A stretch of 64,000 nt of DNA, from contig CBFGKH010000009.1 of assembly GCA_965649295.1 (NCBI GenBank), positions 32,001 to 96,000 of the forward strand, read 5' to 3'. The position numbers and the translations under genes are program-made. The notes below the pieces were generated by a model that saw only the letters and a program-made list of their open reading frames with translations, ran no database searches and was not told the origin of the DNA. This stretch comes from a candidate division WOR-3 bacterium. GTDB taxonomy: Bacteria > Hydrothermota > Tepidihabitantia > Tepidihabitantales > Tepidihabitantaceae. Shown one piece after another: positions 36,575 through 53,675 of this stretch; position 1 is the stretch's first letter; every line of letters starts with the position of its first letter.

Positions 36575-37709
36575 GTGGTGCTATCTTGTCACCGGGCTAC
36601 TTCTCTGCTGGTATTGTTCTTTGGCAGTCGGGTTGGCCGAGCCAATTGACCTGCGGCAGTCGCTGGCCAAACTCGACAGCGCGAGCTCGTTCCGGTTCAG
36701 TCTCTCCTATCACGCCGGTGCGGGTTGGGGGATAGCGGCCAGTTTTCAGGGCTGGCGTCGTCGGCCCGACACCGAATTATGGGCCGGGACGTGGACCAAC
36801 CAAGGGGTCAGTTCGCAGGTGGCGATGGTCGCTAGCGGCAGCAAGCAGTACACAAAGGGCGATGATGGCCAGTGGCTGCTGACCCAACGCGGGGTGGAGA
36901 CCAGAATACTTGACCAGGTGCAAGCAGTCCTGCTCGATACGATGGCATCCTTGCTGCGTCCCGGTGTTTATGGCTTTGCGGCGCGGATGCCCCTGTTCGA
37001 TGCCGCCGCAGCTGGACGGTATCAGGGCGAGATTAGAATCGGCCGTAACGGAATGCCGGTTGCCATAGCCGTGCGTGAGACTGGCGGGAAGAGTGGCTGG
37101 GAGTGCCGGTTCAGCCGGTTCGGTTGGCCGGTGCGCATCCGGCTGCCGTTTGTCCCGGCCCAGACGATTCGTATCCAGCCCGAGACGAGGCACTGCTGCT
37201 GTGTTGTGCAGCAGGCGCGACGGCGGCTGATTGCCAGGTTTCGGTCAATCGGAGTTGATGTTCGGCTGGCGGCTGGTGGCCGAGTCATGGTTGACCAGGC
37301 GCTACCGGTTTCGCTCCTCGGAATGCTGGTTGGACAGGGCAAGGTCGAGCTCTGGTCTGCTGTTCGCACTGAAGACACGGCTGGCCAGCCAGTGGCTGGC
37401 GATGTCGCGCGCCGGGTTCGACTTGAACATTGGCTGCTTGCTAACCGCTCGCTGCTTGCTCGGCCTGATACCTTGCTACCGCTTTCGCCAACTCTGACTT
37501 GTGCGATTCTACCCGATTCAGTCGCTCGACTGGTAGCCCTAGTGGTTGATGGGCAAGTCCTTGATGTCCGTGAGGTGGAGCCTTACCAGGACAAGGTGCA
37601 GTTCTCTGAACTGGGTTCATCACCGTTTGTCGCGGCAATCGCGGCGATGGCGCAAGCCGCGCCATTGCCATTCGGTTTTAGGGTAGTCGAGGTCGGTAAT
37701 GGCCGCTAG
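36564..37709 (+). CDS. Secreted hypothetical protein (LolA/LppX-like N-domain plus SecD periplasmic-domain-like C-domain)
   Basis: GTG 36564 gives a signal peptide; overlaps both neighbours; domain calls are by eye. Confidence 0.6.
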   Translation: MTFRWCYLVTGLLLCWYCSLAVGLAEPIDLRQSLAKLDSASSFRFSLSYHAGAGWGIAASFQGWRRRPDTELWAGTWTNQGVSSQVAMVASGSKQYTKGDDGQWLLTQRGVETRILDQVQAVLLDTMASLLRPGVYGFAARMPLFDAAAAGRYQGEIRIGRNGMPVAIAVRETGGKSGWECRFSRFGWPVRIRLPFVPAQTIRIQPETRHCCCVVQQARRRLIARFRSIGVDVRLAAGGRVMVDQALPVSLLGMLVGQGKVELWSAVRTEDTAGQPVAGDVARRVRLEHWLLANRSLLARPDTLLPLSPTLTCAILPDSVARLVALVVDGQVLDVREVEPYQDKVQFSELGSSPFVAAIAAMAQAAPLPFGFRVVEVGNGR

Positions 37710-40700
37710 GTCTTGGCTTTGTCTCCTAATTGGCCTGGCAGTGGCGACTGCGGCAAGTGGAGAACCGAAAGTGCAGGTTCTCGGTTCAGACCGGACCGGC
37801 TTCAGCTGTCGCGTCGAGTTTGGGGAGCCGGTCTTGGTGGCCCGGGGTCAGGCTAGCAGGGTGGAGCTGGACGGCTGCGACAACGTGGCAGAGCCAGGCT
37901 GCTTCGACCTGCCGAGCAAGACGATTTGCGTTGGTCTGCCGCAAAGCGGTGGCTACCGTCTCGAAGTAGTAGCGCGTGATACTTACTCGCTGTCAGCAGT
38001 AGTGGCGCGGGTTCCGCGCTGCTCTTGGGAAGATGAATGGGACGGGCAAGGCCCAGCAGCGAGCGCGAGGGAAGGAGGAGCGGCAGAGTCTAGTGGCGCT
38101 GCTACTGAGAAGTGTGGGCAGTCAGGCTGGGTAGTCGCTGGTGCGATCAGTTGTCGGCGTGGGATTCGTTTCGTGCCGCTAACCCTCCGGCCTGTTCAAT
38201 ACGATGCCGGGCAGAGAACTGTCCAGGTTGCTCGGTCCCTTGAGCTGCGCGTTTGCTTCGAGCAACAGCCGGTTGAACTGAGTGTCACTGACCCGTTGAC
38301 CGCGGTGGTCGGAAATTGGCTTCTCAACGGCACGGTTGCCGCAGCCTGGAGAGTAGTGGAGATGGGCGCCAATCCTAATCCTTTTGCCCGGTCGGCAAAT
38401 TGGCTGCGGATTAGAATTGATTCGACCGGCCTCTACGGGATTACCGGTCGCGACCTGGCGGCGGCCGGGTTGTCACTGTCTGGTTTGGCTGTATCAACCC
38501 TGGCTTTGTACCGTCCGCAAGGAGCAGACCACGGGGCTAGCTTTGATTCGTTGGTGCCGGTTCCGATCCATGTTGACGATGGCGGTGATGGCAGGTTTGA
38601 TGCCGATGATGTTATCGTATTCTGGGGGATTGGTGCGAGCCACTGGACTGCGCTGCAAGCCGAGTATGTGACCAATCTCTACTCGAACCAGAGCGCATAC
38701 TGGCTGACATGGAATGGTGCGGCTGGTGCGCGGATGCCGGCTGGGCTTGGTCCTGATTCGATCGGGGCCAGGCGCGTCACGACCGGTCTTGGCCGGGCTC
38801 GCATCGAGAAGGACTTGATATGTCCGGCACGTTCGGGTCTGCTCTGGCTTTGGCAGCAACTCTACAAGCCGCGGGAGCAGTTGGAGGCTTTGTTCCAGAC
38901 CGACATTCGGCTAGTAGCGCCGTCTCGGCTCCTCGGTATTGCTGGCCGACTGCTTGCTGATTCTTCAGGTAATACTGTCAGCGTGAAATTGAATGGTCGG
39001 CAGGTCGGAACATTAGTTTTCAACGAGGCAACACCGGGCCGGCCGTTTCTTTTCAGCCTGGCTGCTGACTTGCCACTTGATTTCAGCAGCAACAGTATCG
39101 AGCTCAGCCTGCGTGGCAACGGTGGCAAGCGGCTCTGGGTTGACTATTTCGAGTTCGAGTACGAGAAGCGACTGACACTCGAATGCGGCCAACTTTTCTT
39201 TGTGACAACCGACACCGGTCTCTGTCGCTATGTGCTGCGTGGTGTCAGTGCCTTGCCCTATGTGGTCAATACGACCGTGCCGGAACGGCCGTTGCTGATT
39301 ACCGAGCCGCTCTGGCAAGGCGACAGTCTTGCTTTCTGCCATCGTGCTGGCCAAGCCAATGAGTTTGCAGTCGCGACCCGGAGTCAGTTGCGCCGGCCAA
39401 GCGAGATTCGGCGCTGCCAGCCGGGTCGGCTGCGTGACCGACTGGTGGCGGCTGACTACTGGATAATCGCACCGTCAGCCCAGTTTGCAGCGGCAGAGCG
39501 GTTAGCTCGCTATCGAACCGGCAACGTTCCCGGCATCAGCAATGCTCGGGTTGCGGTCGCAGTTCTCGAGGAGGTCTATGACGACTATGGCGGCGGCAAT
39601 GAATCTCCTTGGGCAGTGAAAAACTTCATTGCCGACAAGCAGCCAAGTTATGTCCTGCTCGTTGGCGACGCGACTTGTGACTATCGCGGGCTATTGGGCC
39701 CCAGACCGGCTGGCGTGCCGGCCTGGGAGTATGGCTATGGTCTCAATCCGGATGCCTATGACCGAACCGTCATGGCCTTTGATGCCTGGTATGCCGACTT
39801 CGAGGGTGATGGCGGGTCGCCGGACGCTATCCTTGGACGAGTGACCACCCGGGACGGAACTGAACTATCGCAATACGTCAGTCGAATCATTGAGTATGAG
39901 TCACGACCAACTGGCTACTGGCAGCGACGTTTTCTGTTGCTGGCTGACGACGAGTTCGAAGGGTCGGTGAGCCGGCCGGACCCGATTGGCTTTGGCCACA
40001 TCGCCTATTGCGAGGCGATGGCCGCACTCGCCGACAATACCCTAGAACCGGTCAAGGTGTATCTTACCGAGTATCCGTATGTCGGGGTGAAGAACAAGCC
40101 TGGCGCCCATGCTGCTTTGATGCGGGAGCTAGGTCGTGGCGGTCTGGTCTTGGTCTTCTTTGGTCATGGCGCAGGTCACGACCTGACGCACGAGAGCGTA
40201 TTGAACATCACTCACACCAGCAGCATCCGTAACGAAGGCCGGTCACCAGTGTGTTTCTTCGGCAGTTGCTCGGTGGGAAGATTCGACGACTGGCTCTTTG
40301 AGTGCATTGCCGAGGATATTGTCCGGCAGGGTGGGGCGATTGCAGCAGTGGCAGCAACCAAGGCGACCACTTCTGGTTCAAATCAGGTATTCTGTCGTCA
40401 GTTCTTGACCCCACTCTTCTCGTGGCCGGATTCGACAGTCGGACTCAGCTTCTTTCTTGCCTGGCCAACCGACCGCATCTATCACTTCTTCGGCGACCCA
40501 GCGCTGCGGCTACGTCTGCCGACCGTTGCGACCGCTCCGGTGACGGTTCGGCCCAGTGTTGCCCAACCGTTGCTTGAACTCTCCTGCCGAGCAGTGCTCG
40601 ACACTTCGGCCGGCGAATACGAGTGGCGGTTCTTTGGGCCGCGCCGCAGCCGGCTCTATCGGTCAACTCAGGGCCAGGTAATCTACCTGCTGGCGGGAAC

Positions 40701-41553
40701 AGAGGCAGGCCGGGGCCGAGGCCGTATCGAACACGGGATGGTCGCTTTTCGGACCATGCTGCCCTTGGGGATTCCGCTCGACACCGTCTTTGTGGCGGAC
40801 GGCTACTATGCGCCGGTTGTTCGGTCATGCCGAGTTGGGATCGTCACTGCTGAGCGGATATGGCGCAACGACACAATTGAATTCGCGTTGGACACTGCCC
40901 CGAGTGAGGACACGGCTGGTCCAACGGTCGAACTGCGTTGTAACGGTACCCGGCTGACCGACGGTGCAACCGTGCCCCGGGACTTCACCCTTGAGGTCGT
41001 ACTGACCGACACGAGTGGCGTGCTCGGCGCGGCGACACCGTTTGGTGCGGTGACGCTGACCATCGGTGCTGCTGCGCCGATTGATGTGACGGATCGGCTC
41101 GCGTTCGGTGACTCGTACCGGCATGCGACCTTGACGGTACCGGTCAGTCTAGCCCAGGACTCGACCCGAATCACGCTCGTAGCCTGTGACAATGCCTTGA
41201 ACAGAACCACGACTAGCGTTGTGGTGAGAAGCAGCAGTGTTGCCGAGTTGAAGCTCGACTCGCTACTGCTCTTTCCCAATCCGGCCCGCTATTCGACGAG
41301 TCTCTTCTTCTGGTCCAGCCGACCAGCGGTAGCCCGTTTCCGCGTCCATACCCTTTCCGGCCGGCTCGTCTTTGACTCTGGTACTCGGGCGGTGCGTGCC
41401 GGGCACAACCAACTGGACTGGCACGGCCGTGACCAGCAGGGCAATATCGTACCGGCTGGTGTTTACCTTGTTTCCTTGCGGCTGACCAGTTCAGCTCCAG
41501 ACCGACAGTCGCGCACGACGACCGCTTGCGAGCGACTAATAGTCCGTCGCTAG
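37699..41553 (+). CDS. PorU-like C25 (gingipain family) sortase with FlgD/T9SS C-terminal domain
   Basis: Signal peptide; W.RI.I...GLY.IT..DL; YVLLVGDA; GRV; LADD; catalytic FGHG and GSC; FFGDPA; FPNP...SGRLV...W.GRD..G...PAGVY; PorV homologue downstream. Confidence 0.8.
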   Translation: MAARSWLCLLIGLAVATAASGEPKVQVLGSDRTGFSCRVEFGEPVLVARGQASRVELDGCDNVAEPGCFDLPSKTICVGLPQSGGYRLEVVARDTYSLSAVVARVPRCSWEDEWDGQGPAASAREGGAAESSGAATEKCGQSGWVVAGAISCRRGIRFVPLTLRPVQYDAGQRTVQVARSLELRVCFEQQPVELSVTDPLTAVVGNWLLNGTVAAAWRVVEMGANPNPFARSANWLRIRIDSTGLYGITGRDLAAAGLSLSGLAVSTLALYRPQGADHGASFDSLVPVPIHVDDGGDGRFDADDVIVFWGIGASHWTALQAEYVTNLYSNQSAYWLTWNGAAGARMPAGLGPDSIGARRVTTGLGRARIEKDLICPARSGLLWLWQQLYKPREQLEALFQTDIRLVAPSRLLGIAGRLLADSSGNTVSVKLNGRQVGTLVFNEATPGRPFLFSLAADLPLDFSSNSIELSLRGNGGKRLWVDYFEFEYEKRLTLECGQLFFVTTDTGLCRYVLRGVSALPYVVNTTVPERPLLITEPLWQGDSLAFCHRAGQANEFAVATRSQLRRPSEIRRCQPGRLRDRLVAADYWIIAPSAQFAAAERLARYRTGNVPGISNARVAVAVLEEVYDDYGGGNESPWAVKNFIADKQPSYVLLVGDATCDYRGLLGPRPAGVPAWEYGYGLNPDAYDRTVMAFDAWYADFEGDGGSPDAILGRVTTRDGTELSQYVSRIIEYESRPTGYWQRRFLLLADDEFEGSVSRPDPIGFGHIAYCEAMAALADNTLEPVKVYLTEYPYVGVKNKPGAHAALMRELGRGGLVLVFFGHGAGHDLTHESVLNITHTSSIRNEGRSPVCFFGSCSVGRFDDWLFECIAEDIVRQGGAIAAVAATKATTSGSNQVFCRQFLTPLFSWPDSTVGLSFFLAWPTDRIYHFFGDPALRLRLPTVATAPVTVRPSVAQPLLELSCRAVLDTSAGEYEWRFFGPRRSRLYRSTQGQVIYLLAGTEAGRGRGRIEHGMVAFRTMLPLGIPLDTVFVADGYYAPVVRSCRVGIVTAERIWRNDTIEFALDTAPSEDTAGPTVELRCNGTRLTDGATVPRDFTLEVVLTDTSGVLGAATPFGAVTLTIGAAAPIDVTDRLAFGDSYRHATLTVPVSLAQDSTRITLVACDNALNRTTTSVVVRSSSVAELKLDSLLLFPNPARYSTSLFFWSSRPAVARFRVHTLSGRLVFDSGTRAVRAGHNQLDWHGRDQQGNIVPAGVYLVSLRLTSSAPDRQSRTTTACERLIVRR

Positions 41554-42190: not shown

Positions 42191-43366
42191 ATGCCCCAAA
42201 GTCAGAATAGTCCTTTTGGCAAGAGCCCGATGCCACTCCTTTCGCGGAGCGGCTTGATTGTGAGAGTCCTTGGCTTGGTTATGGTCGTTGTTGCCATTGC
42301 TGGTGCCGGCCAGAACCCGGGGGCAGTGTTTCTCATGATCTGGCCGGCGGCCCGGCCCACATCGCTTGGCGGTGCTTTTACCGCTATCGCCGACGACGCG
42401 AGCACGGTTTTCTATAATCCCGGCGGCATGGCTTTCCTGCCCCGGACAAATGCAACGTTGATGCACTGCAACTGGCTGCCCGGGCTTTATCCCGGGATGT
42501 ACTACGAATACGCTGGTGTGACGCATAGTCTCGGCAGTCGCGGCAGCGTCGGTGGCAACGTCGTCTATCTGACGACTGGCGAAACCGATGTGATAAACGA
42601 GCGCAACGAATTCCTCGGCCGTTACACGACTTTCGATGTGGCGGTTACCGGCTCCTATGGCTACCCAGTGCTGCCCAATCTCGGCTTGGGCGTTGGCGCT
42701 AAGTTTGTCTATTCCTTCTTGGTTCCGGATTGGGTCTGGAGCGTGATGCCGGAGCTTGGCATTGAGGCTGGCGGCACCGGTATCACCTGGGCGCTCGACG
42801 CCGGCGCGCTCTATCGGCCTTTCGACTTTCTCAAAGTCGGAATGTCGCTGGCCAATCTCGGGCCGAACATCTCCTATACCTCGTCAGGGGAATCAGACCC
42901 ACTGCCGCGGATGCTGCGGCTGGGCGTCGCCTACACGCCAGTGGACAATCGGATAGTGAAACTCACGGTCTCTCCCGAGTTTACCAAGATACTGGTCGGC
43001 ATGTTCTACAACCCTGATGGCGACAAGACCCTTGGCCGGATGTTGCAGGAGGAATGGCGCAGCACCTGGCGCAGTTTCGGGGTTGAGGCCTCATTTGTCA
43101 ATCTGATTCATGCTCGGGTTGGCTACTTTGAGGACATTGAAGGTCAGCGCGGCGGCATCGTGCTCGAACGGCCGGGCGAGAATCAGGTTCATTACGGCCT
43201 TGACGAAGTGCTGGTGCGTAAGAATCTGGGGCGGTTCAAGTCCCTTGGCCTCTGTTTCGGGGCTGGCATCGAGTATGCCAAGTTCAAGTTCGACCTGAGC
43301 ATTGACAAGTTGATCTACGACTTTCCGACCGACAACTACAAGTTCTCGCTTTCATACCAATTCTGA
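42191..43366 (+). CDS. PorV-like outer-membrane beta-barrel
   Basis: FLMIWPAARPTSLG, ADDAS.FYNPG, WLP, NLGPNISY, DPLP..LRLG, terminal YQF; true start may be a downstream GTG. Confidence 0.82.
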   Translation: MPQSQNSPFGKSPMPLLSRSGLIVRVLGLVMVVVAIAGAGQNPGAVFLMIWPAARPTSLGGAFTAIADDASTVFYNPGGMAFLPRTNATLMHCNWLPGLYPGMYYEYAGVTHSLGSRGSVGGNVVYLTTGETDVINERNEFLGRYTTFDVAVTGSYGYPVLPNLGLGVGAKFVYSFLVPDWVWSVMPELGIEAGGTGITWALDAGALYRPFDFLKVGMSLANLGPNISYTSSGESDPLPRMLRLGVAYTPVDNRIVKLTVSPEFTKILVGMFYNPDGDKTLGRMLQEEWRSTWRSFGVEASFVNLIHARVGYFEDIEGQRGGIVLERPGENQVHYGLDEVLVRKNLGRFKSLGLCFGAGIEYAKFKFDLSIDKLIYDFPTDNYKFSLSYQF

Positions 43367-44731: not shown

Positions 44732-45400
44732 TTGGCAGAGATAGCGGTCCTGAAAAGAGTATTGGCGTCCAATGATGCTGTCGCGGCACGGCAGCTTGAG
44801 CTGCTGCAACGGAACGGCATTCTGAGCGTGAACCTGATGTCAGGCCCGGGCGCGGGCAAGACCGCGCTCATTGAGAAGACCCTGGAGAAATTGGCTTCAC
44901 AATTGCGGATTCACGTAATCGAGGGCGACCTCTGCGGCGATATTGACGCGCGGCGGATTGCGGCAAGGGGTGTGCCTTGTACGCAAATCAACACTGAGGG
45001 CGGATGTCACCTCGATGCTGTCAGCTTGGAACCGGTTATTGCCGAACTGCCATTGGACAGGCTCGACCTGCTGCTGATTGAGAATGTCGGGAATCTTGTC
45101 TGTCCGGCTGAGTTTGCCATGCCGGCTCAGCGGAACGTTACATTGCTATCGGTAGCCGAAGGTTCGGACAAACCGATCAAGTATCCGTACATGTTTGCCA
45201 AGTCTGACCTTGTGGTTGTGACCAAGACCGACCTGTTGCCCTACGTGGACTTTGACCTCGCTGCCCTCCGGGATGCGATTGGGAAGCTCAAACCCGGACT
45301 GCGGGTATTGGCTTTGTCGGTGCGGACTGGCGATGGACTGGCAGATTGGCTGGATTGGGTGGTGAAAGAGCGAGCCCTGTTTGCGCGTACGTCGGTCTAG
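44732..45400 (+). CDS. hypB: Hydrogenase nickel incorporation GTPase
   Basis: SGPGAGKT, GCHLD, ENVGNLVCPA, EG.DKP.KYP, TKTDL. Confidence 0.95.
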   Translation: MAEIAVLKRVLASNDAVAARQLELLQRNGILSVNLMSGPGAGKTALIEKTLEKLASQLRIHVIEGDLCGDIDARRIAARGVPCTQINTEGGCHLDAVSLEPVIAELPLDRLDLLLIENVGNLVCPAEFAMPAQRNVTLLSVAEGSDKPIKYPYMFAKSDLVVVTKTDLLPYVDFDLAALRDAIGKLKPGLRVLALSVRTGDGLADWLDWVVKERALFARTSV

Positions 45401-46199
45401 GTTAGCCCTTGCCTGGCGGTTTCTGCTGGGCGGGCTGGCAGCCATTGCTGGTTGCAGTGTTCCGGTCCTGCAGCCATCCCAGCCAGTCTCGGTACTGGCC
45501 GAAACCTACTTGTCTTCGCCGGTAGTTGACATCTGCGTTGATGGCAAGTCAGTGTTGGCACTTGATGTCGGCGGCGGCAGGTTGCTGCGCTTTACTCCTG
45601 AACTACTGCCGGTTGATACGGTTGTTCTGCCCCAACGGGTTGTGAACGCACGCGGGTGTGCTAGCGACCGGGCTTACTTCTATCTCTGGAACGACCACAA
45701 CCTCTACCGGCTGCAGCGAGCAGCCGACAGCCTTGCCCTCTGGCTGGGGAATGTTCGGCTGGCCGGAATCGCTTCCTATGGGGTCGGCGAAGCCCTGGTT
45801 GCCGATGCCCAGCAGGGAGCAGTATTTCTCAAGACAGTTTTCGGAGCGAGCCGTCGCTTCCTCCCGGCCGCCGACCTGCCCCGGCCCGGTCCAATGGCGG
45901 CACTATCGTCCGATGAGTTCTGTGCCCTAAGCGGAACGACACGCCTAGTCTTTTTCAATCGAACCGGCGCTGTCCTGCGCGAAATGAAGCTGCCCACTAG
46001 CTGCAATCTGCTCGCAACCGCCAACGGCAACATCTATGTCGCAAGGAGCGGGGCTGGCGAAGTCTTCCGGCTGGCTGGGGGCAAGTTTCTGAGAATCCTC
46101 TTGCCCGAGGGTGTGAGACCGGAACGGATTGTTGCAATCGAGGATCGGCTCATCGTCCTGACTGCGGGCTGGCGACTGGTTGCGCTGTCGGCCCGCTAG
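45381..46199 (+). CDS. Putative lipoprotein, probable beta-propeller
   Basis: Arg-rich N-terminus, hydrophobic core, lipobox IAGC; repeated short beta-strand blades. Confidence 0.6.
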   Translation: MRVRRSRLALAWRFLLGGLAAIAGCSVPVLQPSQPVSVLAETYLSSPVVDICVDGKSVLALDVGGGRLLRFTPELLPVDTVVLPQRVVNARGCASDRAYFYLWNDHNLYRLQRAADSLALWLGNVRLAGIASYGVGEALVADAQQGAVFLKTVFGASRRFLPAADLPRPGPMAALSSDEFCALSGTTRLVFFNRTGAVLREMKLPTSCNLLATANGNIYVARSGAGEVFRLAGGKFLRILLPEGVRPERIVAIEDRLIVLTAGWRLVALSAR

Positions 46200-46210
46200 T
46201 TCGCGGCGCG

Positions 46211-49200
46211 TTGGTGAACATTTCGGTGCTACTTGTTTTGCTAGCGACTGCCGCTCGTGTTCAACCCGGCGTTCTATGCTCGGTAGTGACGCTAGGTGAT
46301 GGCGTCACTCGTGTCTTTGAGTTCCAGCACTCGCTGGTTGTCGAGGGTTCAGAATCGATCTATCTCGGAGACCGGGTTCTTGACAGTACTGAATACCTCG
46401 TTGACTATCATCGCGGGCTAGTTGTATTGACCAGCGCTCCGCCATTGTGGTCCCTTTTGGTTCTCACCTATCGTAGCCTGCAGCCGCTGCTGGGTAGCAG
46501 CGACAGGGTCTATCAATCGCGGCCGATGGTGGTGGGGATCGCGGCGGCGACCCCTGAGAGCAGTGTCGCAACTGGTTCTGAGGTCACGGTGGTGAGTGAG
46601 GAATCGGCCGAGCCAGGGCTCGTTGTCAGCGGGACCAAGTCACTGGGCGTTTCGTTGGGTTCGGCTGGCGGCATTGAGCAGTCCACGCGGCTGACGGTCA
46701 GCGGCAGAGTCGAGGGCGTTGATGTGGCAGCAGAGCTTAGTGACGCGGCAGTCGGGATCCCAGCGGAAGGAATGTCGCAGCGTGTTGATGAGTTTGACCG
46801 ACTGCTGCTCCAGCTTCGGGGACGGCATTGGCGAGCGACAATGGGCGACATAGACATGATGCTGCCGGCTGGAGGATTTGGTAGTATCAGACGGCGCGTC
46901 GTTGGTGCCCGGGCCGGCGTGGACCTGTTGCGGACAGAGATGACAGCACACTACGCCATGCCCAAAGGCAGGTCAGGCTATCTGGCGATTAGTGGTGAAG
47001 ATGGGGTTCAGGGGCCCTATGTCCTCGCTGTTGAGGGGAGGGAGGCAACGATCGTTGCTGGCAGCGAGCAGGTCTGGCTTGACGGCGAGAAACTCGAGCG
47101 CGGTTGGGACGCCGATTACACCATTGATTACTCAACCGGTGAGGTTTTCTTCACAAGCCGTCGGCAGATTAGTCGGTCTTCACGCATCGAAATCAGCTAC
47201 CAAACTGCCACAACCGATTACGTTCGCTCAAGTGTCGCTGGCACAGCAACTGCCACGTCTGGACCGTTTCGGCTTGGTGTCTTGCTCTTTCGCGAGGAAG
47301 ATGACACCAGGCGGCCGACATTCGGAGAGCTAACCGAATCAGAAAAAAGGCGGCTGGCTTCAGTTACAGCCGATTCCGGTTTTGCCTGGTTTGACGGAGG
47401 AGTCTATGTCGGTCCTGGCAAGGGCGAGTATCAGCGAGACAGCAGCAGTTATCGGTATGTCGGTGCGGGTGCGGGTGAATACCGAGTTACATTCACGGCG
47501 GTCGCTGACTCTGCCGGTGACTATGTCTATGATGACTCGCTGCTGGCCTGGCGCTACGTCGGGGCGGGCCAGGGTAACTATGTTGCCCGCAAGCGCGTCG
47601 CTCTGCCCGAGCGGCGTGAACTGGGTGTGGCAACGGTTGCGCTTAGCCAGGGACTCTGGTCAACGGCAATTGACTTTGGGATAACCGGGGCCCGTCATAA
47701 CCTCTTTTCGACCACGGCTGCGGCGGTTGTGGCCGGGGCGCTCAATGTTGACGTGGTCTGGGGCGACTCGACCCGCAGCATCAGTTATTCGCGCCGAATG
47801 GCTGGCAGAGGATTCAGGTTTCCGGGCGAGACCCCAGAAATTGACTTCCCTTGGCGTTGGGGTGGAATTGGGGCCTCGGCGCGCCAGGCCGGCGATGAGG
47901 TCAAGCTGTTCGTCAGACCGGCTCCCGGGGTTCGGATTCTGGCTGAGGCAGGTAGGCTGCAATGCAGTGATGCGAGTTCGGTTCTGCGTTACTCAGGGAA
48001 TCTCGAACTGGGTGTTGTCAGGTTGTCAGGGACAAGCGTTGGCGCAACGAGTCGAGCCGAGGCGAGCATTGCACCCCGATTGGGTAGCCTTCTGCCGTCA
48101 TTGGGTTGGCGAATTGTTGCCAGTGATACTGGGCGTGAGGATCATCTGCTGACCGGTATCGCTACGAGACAGGCCGGCTTCAACACGGCATTTGATATTG
48201 ACTATTCTTTCGAGAGGTTCAATGCTGACACATCACTGCGTAACGCCGCTACTCTGGCACGCGGTCGGGTTGAGTGGCAGCCAAGTGACGCGTATCGGAC
48301 GACGCTGGCGGCTACGTACAACAGTCGGTCGGCAGTAACCGCGAGCAGCGCCGAGGGAAACCGAGTCGGCATCAGCCTTAGTATCTTCGCGGCACCGCGA
48401 CCGGGTGTCCGGTTTACTTTCGACGGCGAGCAGGCTGGACGCCGCGTGCAGCTACGCGATGAGACTTTCAGTTACGTCGGGACTGGCCGGGGAGCTTACC
48501 GCCGCGATTCAGCTACAGGCCGTTTCTTCCCCGATTCCCTGGGTGGCTACGAACGCGTGCTGGTTCCTTCCGGGCGAACGACACTGGCCCGTGAGTTGAC
48601 GGCCAACGGTTCAATCGAGCTGAGTCAAGTTTGGCCTGTGACCGTGCAAGGTTCGTTCAGTCATCTGGCAACGGTAACCGACACCGGTGTGCTTCGCCGG
48701 TTGCTGGCGATAGATCTAAGAATGGCGCTTGCTGATGCCGATTGGCCCCTGACACCGGCACTTGGCACTGCTTATGACATGACTGAGGATCAGTTGGTAG
48801 CGGCTACAGGGACGTGTTCCCGGCGAGCGCGGGCTTGGGTTGAGGTCTACGGAGAAGAGTTCGGTCCGTTTAGTAGCCGGGTTCGAATTGAAGGCGCGCA
48901 TGAACGAGTTGGAGGAACGATTGCCGAGCGTAATGATGACATCGGTAGAGTCGAGATCAGCCCGGTGCTCCGATTGTTACGTCTAGAACTACCAGTCGGG
49001 ATAGAATGGCGCAGGGTGGAGCTGCCGAGAAGGCATCCGGAGCTAGGTACATTTGGTGTTTGGGCTGTTCGTGCGGGACTGGCTCGGAGTTTATTCATTC
49101 AGGAGCGCGGGCGTGTACGGGGTTCGTTGGAACTGTTGCGAAGGCTGGCGACTATTCCTGTTATGCCATATGAGGTTGCGATGAGCGAACCTACCGGTTG

Positions 49201-49336
49201 GCTGCCCAGCGCCACGATTGAGGCTTCATACGCAATATCGAAGGTCCTATCGGCTTCGGCCCGTTACTCATATCGGAAGCGACCCGACCGGCCGTCTGAG
49301 CACGGATTGGGGGCCGAGCTGCGAGCCGATTTCTAG
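46211..49336 (+). CDS. Large putative outer-membrane beta-barrel protein with SprA-like GSE..DY.IDY..G repeats
   Basis: Signal peptide; two GSE.(I/V).L.G....Y.(V/I)DY..G segments; YVGxGxGxY repeats; long amphipathic strands; terminal Phe. Confidence 0.65.
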   Translation: MVNISVLLVLLATAARVQPGVLCSVVTLGDGVTRVFEFQHSLVVEGSESIYLGDRVLDSTEYLVDYHRGLVVLTSAPPLWSLLVLTYRSLQPLLGSSDRVYQSRPMVVGIAAATPESSVATGSEVTVVSEESAEPGLVVSGTKSLGVSLGSAGGIEQSTRLTVSGRVEGVDVAAELSDAAVGIPAEGMSQRVDEFDRLLLQLRGRHWRATMGDIDMMLPAGGFGSIRRRVVGARAGVDLLRTEMTAHYAMPKGRSGYLAISGEDGVQGPYVLAVEGREATIVAGSEQVWLDGEKLERGWDADYTIDYSTGEVFFTSRRQISRSSRIEISYQTATTDYVRSSVAGTATATSGPFRLGVLLFREEDDTRRPTFGELTESEKRRLASVTADSGFAWFDGGVYVGPGKGEYQRDSSSYRYVGAGAGEYRVTFTAVADSAGDYVYDDSLLAWRYVGAGQGNYVARKRVALPERRELGVATVALSQGLWSTAIDFGITGARHNLFSTTAAAVVAGALNVDVVWGDSTRSISYSRRMAGRGFRFPGETPEIDFPWRWGGIGASARQAGDEVKLFVRPAPGVRILAEAGRLQCSDASSVLRYSGNLELGVVRLSGTSVGATSRAEASIAPRLGSLLPSLGWRIVASDTGREDHLLTGIATRQAGFNTAFDIDYSFERFNADTSLRNAATLARGRVEWQPSDAYRTTLAATYNSRSAVTASSAEGNRVGISLSIFAAPRPGVRFTFDGEQAGRRVQLRDETFSYVGTGRGAYRRDSATGRFFPDSLGGYERVLVPSGRTTLARELTANGSIELSQVWPVTVQGSFSHLATVTDTGVLRRLLAIDLRMALADADWPLTPALGTAYDMTEDQLVAATGTCSRRARAWVEVYGEEFGPFSSRVRIEGAHERVGGTIAERNDDIGRVEISPVLRLLRLELPVGIEWRRVELPRRHPELGTFGVWAVRAGLARSLFIQERGRVRGSLELLRRLATIPVMPYEVAMSEPTGWLPSATIEASYAISKVLSASARYSYRKRPDRPSEHGLGAELRADF

Positions 49337-49429
49337 GATCGCGATTCGGCTTGACAGTATCGGATGCGATTGGGTATCTTCTACTTGTGACAGGTAGTTC
49401 GTCGGTCCAGCCACAGCCAAGAGGAGACG

Positions 49430-50011
49430 GTGATGATGGCAACAAGACATGACTCGGGGCCGCGACCGCTGCGGCGCGGCAAAAAGACTAACCCCATGCA
49501 GCAGTACCTCTTGATCGCCGGAATCTTCGTGGCGCTAATTGTGGTTATGGTGTTGCTGATGACGAGTCGAAAGCCGGCGGCTGCGCCGAGGGTGGCGACG
49601 CGGGTGAAGAGCGAAGAGGGAACAGAGGAGAGCCGCTCGTCGCGGCGTAAGGAAGCGTCTCCCCGCGCTAGTCGAGCACTTCGACGTGAGCGCAAGGATA
49701 AGGAAGAAGTGCGCGAGCAGCGACGTCGTGAGCGCGAGGAGCGGACAATGGTGCGTCGCAACGAGGAACGGTCGAGCAGACGAACCGGTTCCGCTGACTT
49801 GAACTCGCGGGTCCGGACGAGCAGTCCGTATCAGTTGCGGGCGATAATGACCGACGAGAGTGGAGTCCGTTATGCGCTGGTTGGTGACCGTCGATTTCGA
49901 GCTGGCGACGATATCGGTGGGCGCAAGCTCGTTGAGATTGGTGTTGACGAGGTGAAGGTAGATAACGGCATCAGCACATACCCGGTAAAAGTCGGTCAGA
50001 CAATCTACTAG
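49430..50011 (+). CDS. Single-pass membrane protein with Arg/Glu-rich linker and GspB/MshK-like C-terminal domain
   Basis: SD GAGGAG; TM YLLIAGIFVALIVVMVLLM; C-terminal LRAIM......YALVGDRRFRAGDDIGGRKLVEI. Confidence 0.6.
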   Translation: MMMATRHDSGPRPLRRGKKTNPMQQYLLIAGIFVALIVVMVLLMTSRKPAAAPRVATRVKSEEGTEESRSSRRKEASPRASRALRRERKDKEEVREQRRREREERTMVRRNEERSSRRTGSADLNSRVRTSSPYQLRAIMTDESGVRYALVGDRRFRAGDDIGGRKLVEIGVDEVKVDNGISTYPVKVGQTIY

Positions 50012-50029: not shown

Positions 50030-51958
50030 GTGAATCGATTAGCCCTGTTGCTGCTGTCATATTCTCTGCTCCTAGGCAACAATCTAGTAATCAATGGTGA
50101 CTTCGAGCTAGACCCAATCGCCAATGGCTGGGTCTTTGAGCGCTGGGGCAATTACCCGGACACTGGCAACTGTCGGTTGCGCTGGCTTCATAGTCTGAAT
50201 CCGGACCGCGACTTTGAGGTGATGGTTCAGAAGACGCTCCACCGTGAGGCGCGACTCTCCCAAGTCGTACGGGTGCCAAGCCTAGAACTCGAGTTCGCTG
50301 TCTCCTGTCAGATGTACTGCTCGACACGCAGCGAATCAACATGGACTGCGGCCTGCGTCAATCTTGACTACCTTGACGTTCAGGATTCAGTCCTTGGTAC
50401 CACCAGAATCTACAAACCTACCTCTGGCTGTACCTGGGTTAGCGATACGAAGCTTTACTTGATTCGGGTGAATGATACGCTATGGCATGACTATCGGATT
50501 GATGTCGCTGTCGAGCTGGCGCAACATCTGCTCGGTGTCAATGTTGCTGACATCCGCTCGATCCGAGTAGGGATTGTCGGCTATGTTGTAGACGACTGCT
50601 GAATGGGGCGACCAGAGGCGAAGGTCTTCGCCGACAATATTTCGCTCCATACCCGCACCACTCCAAGTTTGGAGTATCGAACGTTCGAGATTGACGATGC
50701 TGGTGGAATAGTCAATGGTAAGCTTGACCCGGGAGAGGAGGCGATACTGCGGTTGGTACTGCAGGCAGGTGGTGGCAGCGTTCCGGCGACTACTGGCCGA
50801 CTTTCGAGCCGGTCGAGTTCGCTTGCTGTATTGGATGCGGACGCCGAATTTGGGCCGGTCCTAGCCGGTGAGACGACGGCTTGTGTGGTCAATCCCTTCC
50901 GGGTTAGAGCTTCTCCTACTGCTCCGGTTGAAGAGGCAGCCTGGTGCGACCTAATACTTGCCGGAGATCACTACGATGACACTGTCTCGGTGCCCGTCAT
51001 AATTGGCGACTCAATGAATCTGCCGCTTGGGCCAGATAGGTATGGCCATCGTATGTTTGACTACAGCGACTCGGCATACGAGCAATGTCCTGACTATGAC
51101 TGGATAGAACTACGGGGAATCGGAACCCGTCTGCCCCTAGGCAACGACGAGACGAGGACGGTGCCGTTACCAGTGCAGTTTGGCCGATGGTGCTGGTATG
51201 GTGTGGCGTACGATTCGATCTCAATTTGCTCTAACGGTTGGATAGCAGCGGGAGTAACGGAACGCCCAGATTTTGTCAATATCATTCTGCCCTACAGCGG
51301 TTCACCGGCCAACATCCTCGCTTTCCTCTGGTGTGACCTTGACCCGAGTCGCTATGGTGCCATCTGGTATTGGTACGACACAGCAGGTCATCGGTTCATT
51401 GTCGAGTTTGACTCAGTTCCTTACTTTGCTTTGCCGAACAATTGGGAGAAGGTCCAAGTACACATTTACGATGAACATGTTTTAAGCTCAGGCTGCGACA
51501 ACCTTGTAACTATTCACTACCAAACCGCAAATGCCTGCAGTCTGATCACAGTTGCTTTTCAGAACAGTGACGGAACCGATGGTTTGACTCATGTCTGGAA
51601 TAGCTGGCATCCGCGGGTCAGTGCGCCAATCAGAGCAGGCAGTGCGTTCGGCATTGTAGCAGGGCCATCGGTTGGTGTTGGCAAACGTCAATCGGCTGAG
51701 CCAGCCAGCGGGGGACGGGTGGTTGTTTCTCCAAGCCCGTGTCGGCGCGGCCGACCGGTGTTGTTTAGTCTCTCCGGAGGTAATGTACAGACCTTGGAGA
51801 TTACCGATGGATTGGGGCATCGTGTTGCCCAGCTTCTTTTGAACAAGGGACAGACGACGGTCAGGTGGTGGCCGGTGTCGCTACCCAATGGTGTTTATTT
51901 TGTTATGTCCAGGACGCCGGGCGCCGTGGAGTGTGAGAAGCTTGTCCTGCTTGAGTGA
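50030..51958 (+). CDS. Candidate secreted selenoprotein (642 aa, Cys-Sec at TGA 50600-50602) with T9SS-type C-terminal domain; otherwise two abutting ORFs
   Basis: ORFs 50030-50602 and 50603-51958 are in frame, separated by one TGA; signal peptide only in the first, CTD only in the second; SECIS-like hairpin follows the TGA. Confidence 0.72.
50603..50650 (+). promoter_or_regulatory. Putative bacterial SECIS element
   Basis: Lower stem ATGGGGCGA (50603-11) / TCGCTCCAT (50642-50); upper stem GGCGA (50617-21) / TCGCC (50628-32); apical loop AGGTCT starts 19 nt after the TGA. Confidence 0.7.
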
Positions 51959-52031: not shown

Positions 52032-53675
52032 TCACTTCAGTTTGACGACGCGGGCAGTCGTTAGGGGGATGGTTCGGTCGTGCGTTTCAAGCATACAGAC
52101 ATAGGCTCCTGCCGGTGCTTGATTGCCGGATTCGGTCCGGCCATCCCAGATTACCTCGTTCGGTCGGGTAGGCAAGAGCGTACGCACGACATTGCCCGTA
52201 GCGTCGCAGACTCTAACAGTCGGGCCAGGTTCGAGGACCGAGTTCCAGCGTAGTGTTACAGTTTGCCCGAATATCGTCGGATTAGCCATCAAACAGCCGA
52301 GCTTGATCGCTAGCGGTTGGGCCGGTGTGTTTACGGCGGTAGCAGTTATCGGTAGTGTGGTATCGTACGGACAGAGATTGGGGCCGGTAACGACCAACCG
52401 AACCCGACCCGTATCCGGTAGTGTAACTTGGAGCTTGATTACACCCAGCGAGTCAGTGTAGCCGTAGCTATAGACGGTTGTATCGCTGGCCATTGAGAGA
52501 CAAGCAAGTGCGCTCTCTCTTGCGACACCGGCAGCGATGACTACGATATCGACACGCTGCAAGCCAGGGAGCAGTGTTGGCGGATGGCTTACACTCGGAC
52601 GCTCCGGTGTCTTCGTCCAGACGCGCAGGGACGGATCGCCGAGCAGATTGAAACCACGGTAGTCGTTAGTGCGTGAGGGGAACTCAGTGTATAGCTGCTG
52701 CTTGGCTCGCAAGAGCAACTTGCCTAGTGGCAGAATTCCTTCGCTGAAGAGTCCGGTAAAGAAGCCACGAGCTATGGCGCCTCGAACGCGGGCAACGTTA
52801 TTGTCACTATGGGTGTTACCGATGAAGGCAACTGCGCCTTTGAGCGCTGAGACCGTCCCGGTCTTTAGCCAAGCCTCGCCAACCATTGATTCATTCGGTG
52901 TCAAGGTCATCGTGGCACAGGTAGCGGAGAGAATCACAGGCAGTTTGGTGCCGTTGCTAGTCGCGGCGGGATTGACAGCAAATGGGTCATACCAGTTGCC
53001 GACTGCGCTGCCGCGATAGAGCACAATGCCTCGGCCAGCGTTAATCGCTGACACGACATGGCTAGCTGAATGGCCACGGTAGTTTGAAAAAGAATCACAG
53101 CTTACCCAGCCAGCGGTACGAGCAAGGCTGGCCGCATAGCGGGCGTCATTCCAATAGACTGTGTCGTCGCTATCACCGCCTTCTCGAACAATCGTCACAA
53201 GGCGACGCATCCAGAGCGTGTCAGTCAGGTCCGGATAGCGTTCGTAGGCCAACGTCTTGGCGACCATAACGTCAAGCTGAGCTGCTGTGCGGGCGGGAAA
53301 ACGACCAACCGGTAGCTCGGCTCGGAAATCGCCAGTGACATCACCGTAGTTGTTATCGGTAGCGTAGTCGTAGGGCATTGTCCGATAGTAGACTGCCGGC
53401 AGCGAGCTTTGTGAACCGACTAGCAAAACGTACTCGGGCCGCACCGGCCAGTTGTTGTAGGCGTTGCGAATGTAGCTGTGAATCGACCCTGTGTCGCTAC
53501 CAATCGTCGAGAGTTTGACAACCCGCGTCGAGAGCCCAGTAGCATGTTTCCACTGGGCAAGCGGCAGAATTGAGTTGTACAGTGCGTCAGTGGTTATTAT
53601 CAGCAGCCGTGCGCCGTCATCGGCAAGAACGGTCGTTGTCAAAATAGCCACCAGGAGAAATGCCAGTCGTTTCAC
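52032..53675 (-). CDS. C25 (gingipain) family protein with FlgD/T9SS C-terminal domain
   Basis: Signal peptide; LAQWK, PEYVLLVG, PVGRFP, SATC, FNLLGDPSL; ANP..F...DATGNVVRTL...WDGR...G...PAGAY. Confidence 0.85.
   Translation of the reverse strand: MKRLAFLLVAILTTTVLADDGARLLIITTDALYNSILPLAQWKHATGLSTRVVKLSTIGSDTGSIHSYIRNAYNNWPVRPEYVLLVGSQSSLPAVYYRTMPYDYATDNNYGDVTGDFRAELPVGRFPARTAAQLDVMVAKTLAYERYPDLTDTLWMRRLVTIVREGGDSDDTVYWNDARYAASLARTAGWVSCDSFSNYRGHSASHVVSAINAGRGIVLYRGSAVGNWYDPFAVNPAATSNGTKLPVILSATCATMTLTPNESMVGEAWLKTGTVSALKGAVAFIGNTHSDNNVARVRGAIARGFFTGLFSEGILPLGKLLLRAKQQLYTEFPSRTNDYRGFNLLGDPSLRVWTKTPERPSVSHPPTLLPGLQRVDIVVIAAGVARESALACLSMASDTTVYSYGYTDSLGVIKLQVTLPDTGRVRLVVTGPNLCPYDTTLPITATAVNTPAQPLAIKLGCLMANPTIFGQTVTLRWNSVLEPGPTVRVCDATGNVVRTLLPTRPNEVIWDGRTESGNQAPAGAYVCMLETHDRTIPLTTARVVKLK

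Follow-up and report, generated by a model that had tools for sequence, protein, structure and literature searches.

A conserved in-frame UGA very probably encodes selenocysteine in a predicted surface protein with a lectin-like domain from a WOR-3 bacterium

We analyzed a 64,000-nucleotide stretch of DNA, here called the window, from a candidate division WOR-3 bacterium (contig CBFGKH010000009.1, positions 32,001 to 96,000 of the forward strand, in assembly GCA_965649295.1). The window belongs to contig 9 of the host genome, labeled G000, which comprises 2.28 Mb in 19 contigs and is rated 100% complete. On its plus strand, an open reading frame (ORF) of 190 codons extends from a GTG at 50030 to a TGA at 50600-50602 (ORF 50030-50602), and an ORF of 451 codons extends from an ATG at 50603 to a terminal TGA at 51956-51958 (ORF 50603-51958). 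The ATG abuts the first TGA, both ORFs share one frame, and this TGA is the sole interruption, which confirms what an earlier sequence-only reading of this DNA had described as one continuous frame. Reading through the TGA gives a product of 642 residues with the junction ...GYVVDDC-U-MGRPEAKVFADNISL..., where U stands for selenocysteine (Sec). The N-terminus, MNRLALLLLSYSLLLG, was judged by eye to resemble a signal peptide. Comparative sequence analysis indicates that the two ORFs very probably make up a single gene, 50030-51958, for a secreted 642-residue selenoprotein in which UGA 50600-50602 is decoded as Sec. The support computed here comes from the reading frame, the conserved UGA, a covarying hairpin, the Sec machinery of the genome, the predicted fold and the size of the family. 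That family is bacterial, large and uncatalogued, and public gene calls split its members in two.

To compare the site across the family, we aligned 49 genes (alignment A2), namely, the window gene and 48 further loci, with 27 to 57% identity. The homologous codon is TGA in all 49, and the check for TAA, TAG or a frameshift at this position, proposed with the first reading, turned up none. At the DNA level, TGA was present in the window copy (L023), in all 28 of the other retrieved loci that cover the site (L050 does not cover it and is not counted), in 20 of 20 more distant loci (27 to 34% identity) and in two further G000 paralogues. A further 38 loci beyond the 49 also have TGA at the site, so that the UGA is kept in at least 87 genes. 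The joined protein was also searched against six-frame translations of 272 genomes of the phylum, where the identity of matches reaches down to 29%. Exactly one TGA was held by 57 of the 59 listed matches that start before residue 191; the exceptions were G184:C127, with two TGAs, and G000:C3:200402, with none. Matches to residues ∼200 to 640 alone, within larger proteins, held zero TGAs. By tblastn and the genome search, residues 1 to 642 align to homologues that each contain exactly one internal TGA. As a separate observation, the second in-frame TGA of G184:C127 (locus L072) lies ∼117 codons after the Sec codon in the context ...PAET-U-VHCILL...; no hairpin of the conserved type described below was seen after it, and it could be a second Sec codon, a break or an error.

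A pseudogene, or an assembly error at the TGA, would look like one in-frame stop. Here, however, the same codon recurs at the same site in the 48 other aligned loci and the 38 further ones, in many genomes, no other stop or frameshift is present, and coding conservation runs on both sides of the TGA. The comparison of sequences thus already refutes this explanation, to which we give practically no weight. The direct succession of TGA and ATG in the window could alternatively represent stop-start coupling (TGA-ATG) of two genes, one for a 190-residue secreted protein and the other for a 451-residue protein, and databases do list both pieces as separate proteins. The codon after the TGA, however, is ATG in only 4 of the 49 genes, a Gly, Ser or Thr codon in the other 45, and GTG or TTG in none; furthermore, the downstream piece lacks a signal peptide, although a secretion domain stands at its end. 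With the TGA conserved and the start codon after it not conserved, neither coupled genes nor a pseudogene or assembly error can explain the site, and we consider the two-gene arrangement extremely unlikely.

Folding of the RNA from 50585 to 50665 gave a 9-bp lower stem (50603-50611 with 50642-50650) and a 6-bp upper stem (50617-50622 with 50627-50632), the latter capped by the tetraloop GGUC (50623-50626). Opening the A-U pair next to the loop turns this into a 5-bp stem with an AGGUCU loop, the form in which the hairpin had first been proposed as a selenocysteine insertion sequence (SECIS). Its weight beyond chance comes from the comparison with homologues only. In alignment A2, all six pairs of the upper helix form in 49 of 49 sequences (100% of cells), and the GGUC loop is likewise invariant (49/49). 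Compensatory double changes occur in three of the six pairs (G-C to A-U in four sequences, G-C to A-U in two and A-U to G-C in seven), and covariation of a fourth pair is seen in the contig 3 paralogue of G000. The observed covariation score was reached by none of 500 shuffles, a count that is not a probability, as the sequences are related. Some of the compensatory changes are synonymous (e.g., GCA...TTT for GCG...TTC), and therefore protein and pairing are preserved together. Across the 49 genes, synonymous sites are frozen within the hairpin (Val GTC in 49, Ala GCG in 47 and Ala GCC in 44) and free just past it (Asp GAT in 25 and GAC in 24; Ser TCA in 14, TCC in 12 and TCG in 11). In a pair of coupled genes, the hairpin would have no role that could account for its compensatory changes and its frozen synonymous sites. 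The same 14 to 16 nt are nearly invariant across genes that are only 27% identical and across several phyla.

The conserved hairpin appears in the minimum free energy (MFE) fold of 39 of the 49 sequences. The idea that the 9-bp lower stem is also conserved was rejected, as only 39% of its cells are paired in register in A2; many homologues form a different lower stem by pairing other bases, often UGAGGG with a downstream CCCUCA. Thus, of the hairpin as originally proposed, the upper stem and the GGUC loop are conserved and covarying, but the lower stem is not conserved in register. In the window, the loop follows the UGA at a distance of 20 nt; across the 49 genes, this distance is 17, 20 or 23 nt. 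This spacing falls within the 16 to 37 nt that separate the apical loop of bacterial SECIS elements from the UGA, according to PMC10778597.

Sec insertion needs dedicated machinery, and the genome search for selA, selB, selD and tRNA-Sec suggested by the sequence-only reading found all of them in G000 over curated cut-offs: selA at 576 bits (cut-off, 268), selB at 345 bits (cut-off, 242), tRNA-Sec at 72.9 bits (cut-off, 47) and two selD genes with a single in-frame TGA apiece. The tRNA-Sec gene is on another contig than the window, in which ARAGORN found no tRNA. The selD genes are on contig C1 (318451-319377 and 355394-356299), where the second directly adjoins selB (356367-358244); RNA folds downstream of both selD TGAs lack the GGUC hairpin of the family studied here. 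The open frame alone does not identify the inserted residue, and the UGA might be read through without Sec, by near-cognate insertion of Trp or Cys or as a reassigned codon. TGA is, however, also the ordinary terminal stop of the window gene, and therefore the codon is not reassigned genome-wide. The full Sec machinery in the genome, its TGA-carrying selD genes, the SECIS-like hairpin at a canonical distance and the failure to find true members in lineages without selA all speak for Sec, and read-through with another residue is very unlikely.

The distribution of the family was followed with a degenerate motif, GCRRRGGTCYYYGCYGA, which gave 217 matches in 105 of the 272 phylum genomes, with one to seven matches per listed genome; a reversed control pattern gave 4 matches. 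selA scored over its cut-off in 120 of the 272 genomes, including 41 of 43, 16 of 16 and 29 of 31 in the genome families f1, f13 and f14, which hold members. Family f6 had selA in 0 of 11 genomes and no match to the joined protein. Twelve motif-positive genomes had no selA match better than an E value of 1e-4. In eight of these (from f6, f26, f28, f31 and f32, families that lack selA), the motif matches are due to chance, with no TGA and an unrelated protein context; a match in G022 is also a chance one, though G022 has selA, which brings the checked matches that proved to be chance to nine. Two other selA-less, motif-positive genomes retain parts of the machinery: G223 has selB (351 bits) and tRNA-Sec (77.6 bits), and G145 has tRNA-Sec (75.1 bits). 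In G133, which is assembled in one contig, the sole selA match is a 114-residue C-terminal piece (C1:1645576-1645917) ∼2 kb from a family member (1641705-1643633). Motif matches are often ∼2 to 3 kb apart on the same strand (G149:C1:1487472/1489607; G146:C5:76806/80017/82301; G160:C202:593/2547), which suggests tandem arrays of family members; the second copy in G160 has a stop soon after the hairpin.

A scan for an exact 21-base sequence in one genome per GTDB species found at least 80 loci, among them 38 members and 42 chance matches in high-GC genomes. All 38 members have an in-frame TGA 4 to 6 codons upstream of the match. Their record titles name Candidatus Stahlbacteria, Candidatus Eisenbacteria, Thermoanaerobaculales, Thermoanaerobaculia, Candidatus Cloacimonadota, Desulfuromonadaceae or simply "bacterium." If these labels are right, the sequences place the family in more than one phylum.

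Close database relatives of the joined protein are all "hypothetical proteins" of 399 to 456 residues that cover the downstream part only. We therefore searched a profile of the N-terminal domain (N-domain) against 1.84 billion representatives and obtained 359 clusters (at 50% identity) with E values of ≤0.001, 205 of them at ≤1e-10. Among the best 150 of the 359 clusters, 103 are 165 to 260 residues long and nearly all end at the TGA site, with Cys (70), Gly (22) or another residue (11) as the last one. The N-terminal half was found alone only as fragments stopping at this codon, which answers the concern that the halves might exist elsewhere as independent genes. These fragments, together with the machinery, the conserved TGA and the covarying hairpin, support the hidden 642-residue selenoprotein of the sequence-only reading. 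Its vicinal Cys-Sec pair is frequent, with a Cys codon before the TGA in 26 of the 49 aligned genes and Cys at the end of 70 of the 103 fragments, but it is not universal, since Gly (18 genes) or Ser (5 genes) precedes Sec in the other 23.

Eighteen of the best 150 clusters run through the site, with Cys at the aligned position in 4 and another residue or a gap in 14. While the aligned position holds TGA in the 49 aligned genes and the 38 further loci, it is therefore not the case that every homologue has either Sec or Cys there. Judged from the sequences of these Sec-less relatives, Sec is a feature of a large subfamily and is not needed for the fold. G000 itself has three members with a TGA, on contigs 9, 2 and 3. 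One protein, P0086 (636 residues), runs through the site with Gly but keeps ...ARVLADNISL, which is the peptide that one hairpin variant encodes; its sequence may reflect the loss of Sec by a TGA-to-GGA change.

We modeled the whole protein with AlphaFold (38-sequence alignment; mean predicted local distance difference test [pLDDT] score, 87.2) and the N-domain alone (pLDDT, 94.7). Residue 191 is in a loop (187-195), and VFADNISL is in the last strand (196-208) of a beta-sandwich that begins at LVINGDFE. The models thus bear out the earlier suggestion that these two segments belong to one domain, which a true stop would cut; as modeled, the N-domain is complete only if the UGA is read through, and two coupled genes would leave the predicted sandwich without its last strand. 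In VIA-align comparisons, the N-domain matched 5w6h_A (a phage tailspike C-terminal domain; Z = 15.0), 8xmz_B (a porphyran-binding carbohydrate-binding module [CBM]; Z = 13.5), 4d0q_A (Z = 13.0) and 2zew_A (Z = 12.3); CBM16 and CBM4 structures scored a Z of 11 to 12 (11.0 to 11.7 for CBM4), and Foldseek agrees. Sequence models gave no such assignment. Neither the joined protein nor either half scored over a cut-off in Pfam or NCBIfam, no NCBIfam model (June 2026 release) covers the N-domain, and no Pfam CBM model was matched; CBM26 reached 12.9 bits (cut-off, 28.1) elsewhere in the protein.

No conserved Cys partner for Sec was found in the family: Cys134 is present in 63% of Cys-Sec (CU) forms and 50% of Gly-Sec (GU) forms, and a Cys at residue 104 is present in 55% of GU forms only. 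A tetrad of the glutathione peroxidase type (Sec/Gln/Trp/Asn), built from the invariant residues N22, Q78 and W34/W152, was considered and rejected, as a Sec-less paralogue keeps these residues, which for the same reason look structural.

Downstream of the N-domain, the protein is predicted to continue with an immunoglobulin (Ig)-like and a NIDO-like domain and a C-terminal beta-sandwich (Table 1). The NIDO assignment is transitive: residues 343 to 481 align to P0040 (E value, 8e-15), whose aligned region in turn scores 40.7 bits with the Pfam model NIDO (PF06119; cut-off, 25), and the window protein itself has no direct match to this model. Many larger cargo proteins of the type IX secretion system (T9SS) share the NIDO-like domain, which occurs without any TGA in C25, M14 and M28 peptidases. 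The C-terminal domain of the window protein has no Pfam match at an E value of ≤0.001; across 38 family members, this domain matches FlgD_ig in 28, Por_Secre_tail in 16 and CHU_C in 4.

Several observations weigh against the selenoprotein reading or parts of it. Taken by itself, the window hairpin is not significant (MFE, −24.5 kcal/mol; z = −1.59), with 11 of 200 shuffles folding as well. An Rfam search of 50400-50800 (E ≤ 10) gave no SECIS match and only two chance matches. The conserved 6-bp stem holds no bulged base, and a bulged base is important in the E. coli fdhF SECIS. The loop of the G000 paralogue at C3:200267-202177 contains no Sec and no Cys, and only 4 of the 18 homologues that run through the site have Cys there. 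At the C-terminus, residues 567 to 637 match the NCBIfam model Por_Secre_tail with an E value of 0.0086 and 16 bits, below the cut-off of 23. Finally, two metagenome-assembled genomes, G128 (300 contigs) and G160 (220 contigs), hold true members with neither selA nor selB over the cut-off. These two genomes without confirmed machinery are the main comparative result against Sec decoding, yet a weak one.

The genes around the selenoprotein gene show a partly conserved arrangement (Table 1). The three genes directly upstream precede the orthologue in the same order in seven of eight extended loci, and the 193-residue gene adjoins the orthologue in 20 of 29 other loci searched (L024 to L052). None of the three has a Pfam family. 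Atlas searches link the 272-residue protein to beta-propeller or NHL proteins, a lead rather than an identification, and place the 1041-residue protein in a family without a name, again as a lead only; the latter protein, whose C-terminus reads ...ADF, shows a weak likeness to SprA over one stretch (24.5 bits; cut-off, 200). The region is flanked by two C25 (gingipain-type) peptidases with FlgD_ig tails, at 37699-41553 and 52032-53675. A HypB nickel-insertion GTPase (44732-45400; 231 bits) lies upstream of the cluster. We dropped HypB as a hint to nickel, as it is not conserved in the eight extended loci; purA, further upstream, is likewise not conserved.

Table 1. Features of the selenoprotein gene and its surroundings in the window
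Feature	Positions	Strand	Basis
PorV/PorQ-family T9SS outer-membrane protein	42191-43366	+	NCBIfam PorV_fam, 172.3 bits (cut-off, 90); Pfam PorV, 35.9 bits
Three conserved upstream genes: 272 aa (45381-46199), 1041 aa (46211-49336), 193 aa (49430-50011)	45381-50011	+	Order conserved
Predicted selenoprotein gene, 642 codons plus terminal TGA (51956-51958)	50030-51958	+	Single open frame once TGA 50600 is read through
Signal-peptide-like N-terminus, residues 1-17, MNRLALLLLSYSLLLGN	50030-50080	+	By eye; helix modeled at residues 2-13, low pLDDT
CBM/lectin-like beta-sandwich with Sec, residues 18-213, predicted	50081-50668	+	AlphaFold, VIA-align, Foldseek
Cys190 codon (TGC), immediately 5′ of the Sec codon	50597-50599	+	Window sequence; Cys in 26/49 aligned genes
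In-frame UGA, predicted to be read as Sec, residue 191	50600-50602	+	TGA in 49/49 aligned genes and 38 more loci; Sec machinery in genome
Lower 9-bp stem enclosing the core (50603-50611 with 50642-50650)	50603-50650	+	MFE fold of the window; 39% of cells paired in homologues
Conserved candidate SECIS core, 6-bp stem and GGUC loop (50623-50626)	50617-50632	+	Paired in 49/49; 3/6 pairs compensatory
Ig-like beta-sandwich, predicted, residues 214-325	50669-51004	+	AlphaFold strands; Foldseek to MAM-Ig modules (2c9a_A, 8a1f); no Pfam match
NIDO-like domain, residues ∼334-545	51029-51664	+	Transitive, via P0040
C-terminal beta-sandwich, putative T9SS-type sorting domain, residues 564-640	51719-51949	+	Weak Por_Secre_tail; family-level matches

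We propose the following route from gene to product. In the translated mRNA, the hairpin at 50617-50632, with its loop 20 nt from the UGA, would act as a bacterial SECIS and recruit SelB carrying Sec-tRNA(Sec), so that UGA 50600-50602 would be read as Sec and not as a stop. The signal-peptide-like N-terminus and the T9SS-type C-terminal domain together lead us to expect export of the 642-residue product, which would cross the inner membrane via the general secretory (Sec) translocon, with the type IX system then taking it to the cell surface or releasing it. In the folded protein, Sec191, here as the pair Cys190-Sec191, would be placed on the loop that joins the last two strands of the N-terminal sandwich. 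SelB binding, export and the chemistry of Sec are the steps of this scheme that we infer. Without selenium, translation would stop after residue 190; the Ig-like, NIDO-like and sorting parts would be lost, and the sandwich would lack its last strand, leaving a 190-residue piece that is probably unstable. As both this strand and the downstream domains need read-through, the yield of the surface protein would be selenium-dependent.

As to the role of Sec, our guess, by analogy, is that a ligand-facing loop presents a reactive selenol, or a Cys-Sec selenenylsulfide, which might serve in soft-metal binding or in covalent or redox capture of a ligand. We base the soft-metal or redox role on the argument that the Haft preprint makes for extracellular CU proteins. 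Orthologues of the selenoprotein gene lie in a conserved four-gene module with the genes for the 1041-residue protein, the small membrane protein and the beta-propeller-like protein, and this module may act as a dedicated surface machine. On balance, we lean toward a multiphylum family of surface or secreted lectin-like selenoproteins, with a domain of the carbohydrate-binding type that carries a single Sec, in most cases next to Cys, on an exposed loop, with type IX export and possibly a four-gene surface machine, although this wider picture is held with only modest preference.

If the reading is true, this would be the first selenoprotein family on a lectin fold, with selenium chemistry at the cell surface of anaerobes (for example, covalent or soft-metal capture of ligands), and its SECIS would be under such tight constraint that it keeps the same ∼16 nt from phylum to phylum. 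On the selenoprotein reading itself, gene pairs in public databases are misannotated as two hypothetical proteins in hundreds of cases, and WOR-3-type bacteria, like several other uncultured phyla, have a larger selenoproteome than listed. An extracellular role of selenium would also become testable with a small, well-folding domain of 200 residues.

Our literature search found no paper linking selenoproteins with WOR-3, no T9SS cargo described as a selenoprotein and no description of this family; a paper that mentions selenocysteine together with type IX secretion looked unrelated. In their main texts, a 2026 review (PMC13188914) and the BSepDB paper (PMC13326102) do not mention secretion, T9SS or lectins; nor does the review text mention a surface or a candidate division, or that of BSepDB WOR-3, and the BSepDB family table was outside this comparison. 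The scarcity of Cys forms would explain why homology-based pipelines miss the family. The authors of deep-Sep state (PMC12013277) that their method may miss selenoproteins without Cys homologues.

Among known systems, decoding here is most like that of the fdhF type in E. coli, with SelB and SECIS: an in-frame UGA is followed by a hairpin inside the coding region, and selA, selB, selD and tRNA-Sec are in the genome. The GGUC loop presumably resembles the loop of the E. coli element. Unlike in fdhF-type decoding, the family has a plain 6-bp stem without a bulge and a varying lower stem, and the protein is not a cytoplasmic redox enzyme. The vicinal Cys-Sec had been likened to the redox motif of mammalian thioredoxin reductase, which carries such a pair at the C-terminal end of a flavoenzyme. 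The adjacent residues here could likewise form a selenenylsulfide, but the pair is internal, on a beta-sandwich loop, no domain for flavin adenine dinucleotide or NADPH and no flavoenzyme domain was found in the protein, and Gly-Sec and Ser-Sec forms exist. A Cys-Sec center of the thioredoxin reductase type was therefore rejected, the pair being internal and the protein no pyridine-nucleotide disulfide oxidoreductase.

To CBMs and lectin-like sandwiches, the N-domain is similar in fold only (Z = 10 to 15), with 6 to 20% sequence identity and no family model matched; we know of no described CBM that contains Sec. Among T9SS cargo, the protein shares its Ig-like, NIDO-like and C-terminal parts with peptidase cargo, and the window holds a PorV/PorQ gene and two C25 peptidases, whereas the C-terminal domain of this member scores below the cut-offs for type A cargo (TIGR04183/PF18962).

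A parallel in exposure is the SAO system, whose proteins SaoB and SaoC are, according to a preprint by Haft (10.1101/2022.07.06.499078), CU selenoproteins with signal peptides that are extracellularly exposed and truncated at CU in databases; the preprint argues that their CU motif interacts with a heavy metal. The present family is similarly truncated at CU in databases, has a signal-peptide-like N-terminus and is predicted to be extracellular. It differs in showing no relation in sequence or fold, in being predicted T9SS cargo of didermic uncultured phyla rather than part of an ABC-transport neighborhood and in that CU is not universal.

The great majority of the bacterial selenoproteins known are redox enzymes of the cytoplasm or periplasm, usually found through their Cys homologues. 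The family described here differs from them in its predicted export, its lectin-type fold and its few Cys forms. The decoding mechanism is a known one. Novelty lies in the family itself, with its fold, its predicted export route and a SECIS that hardly varies.

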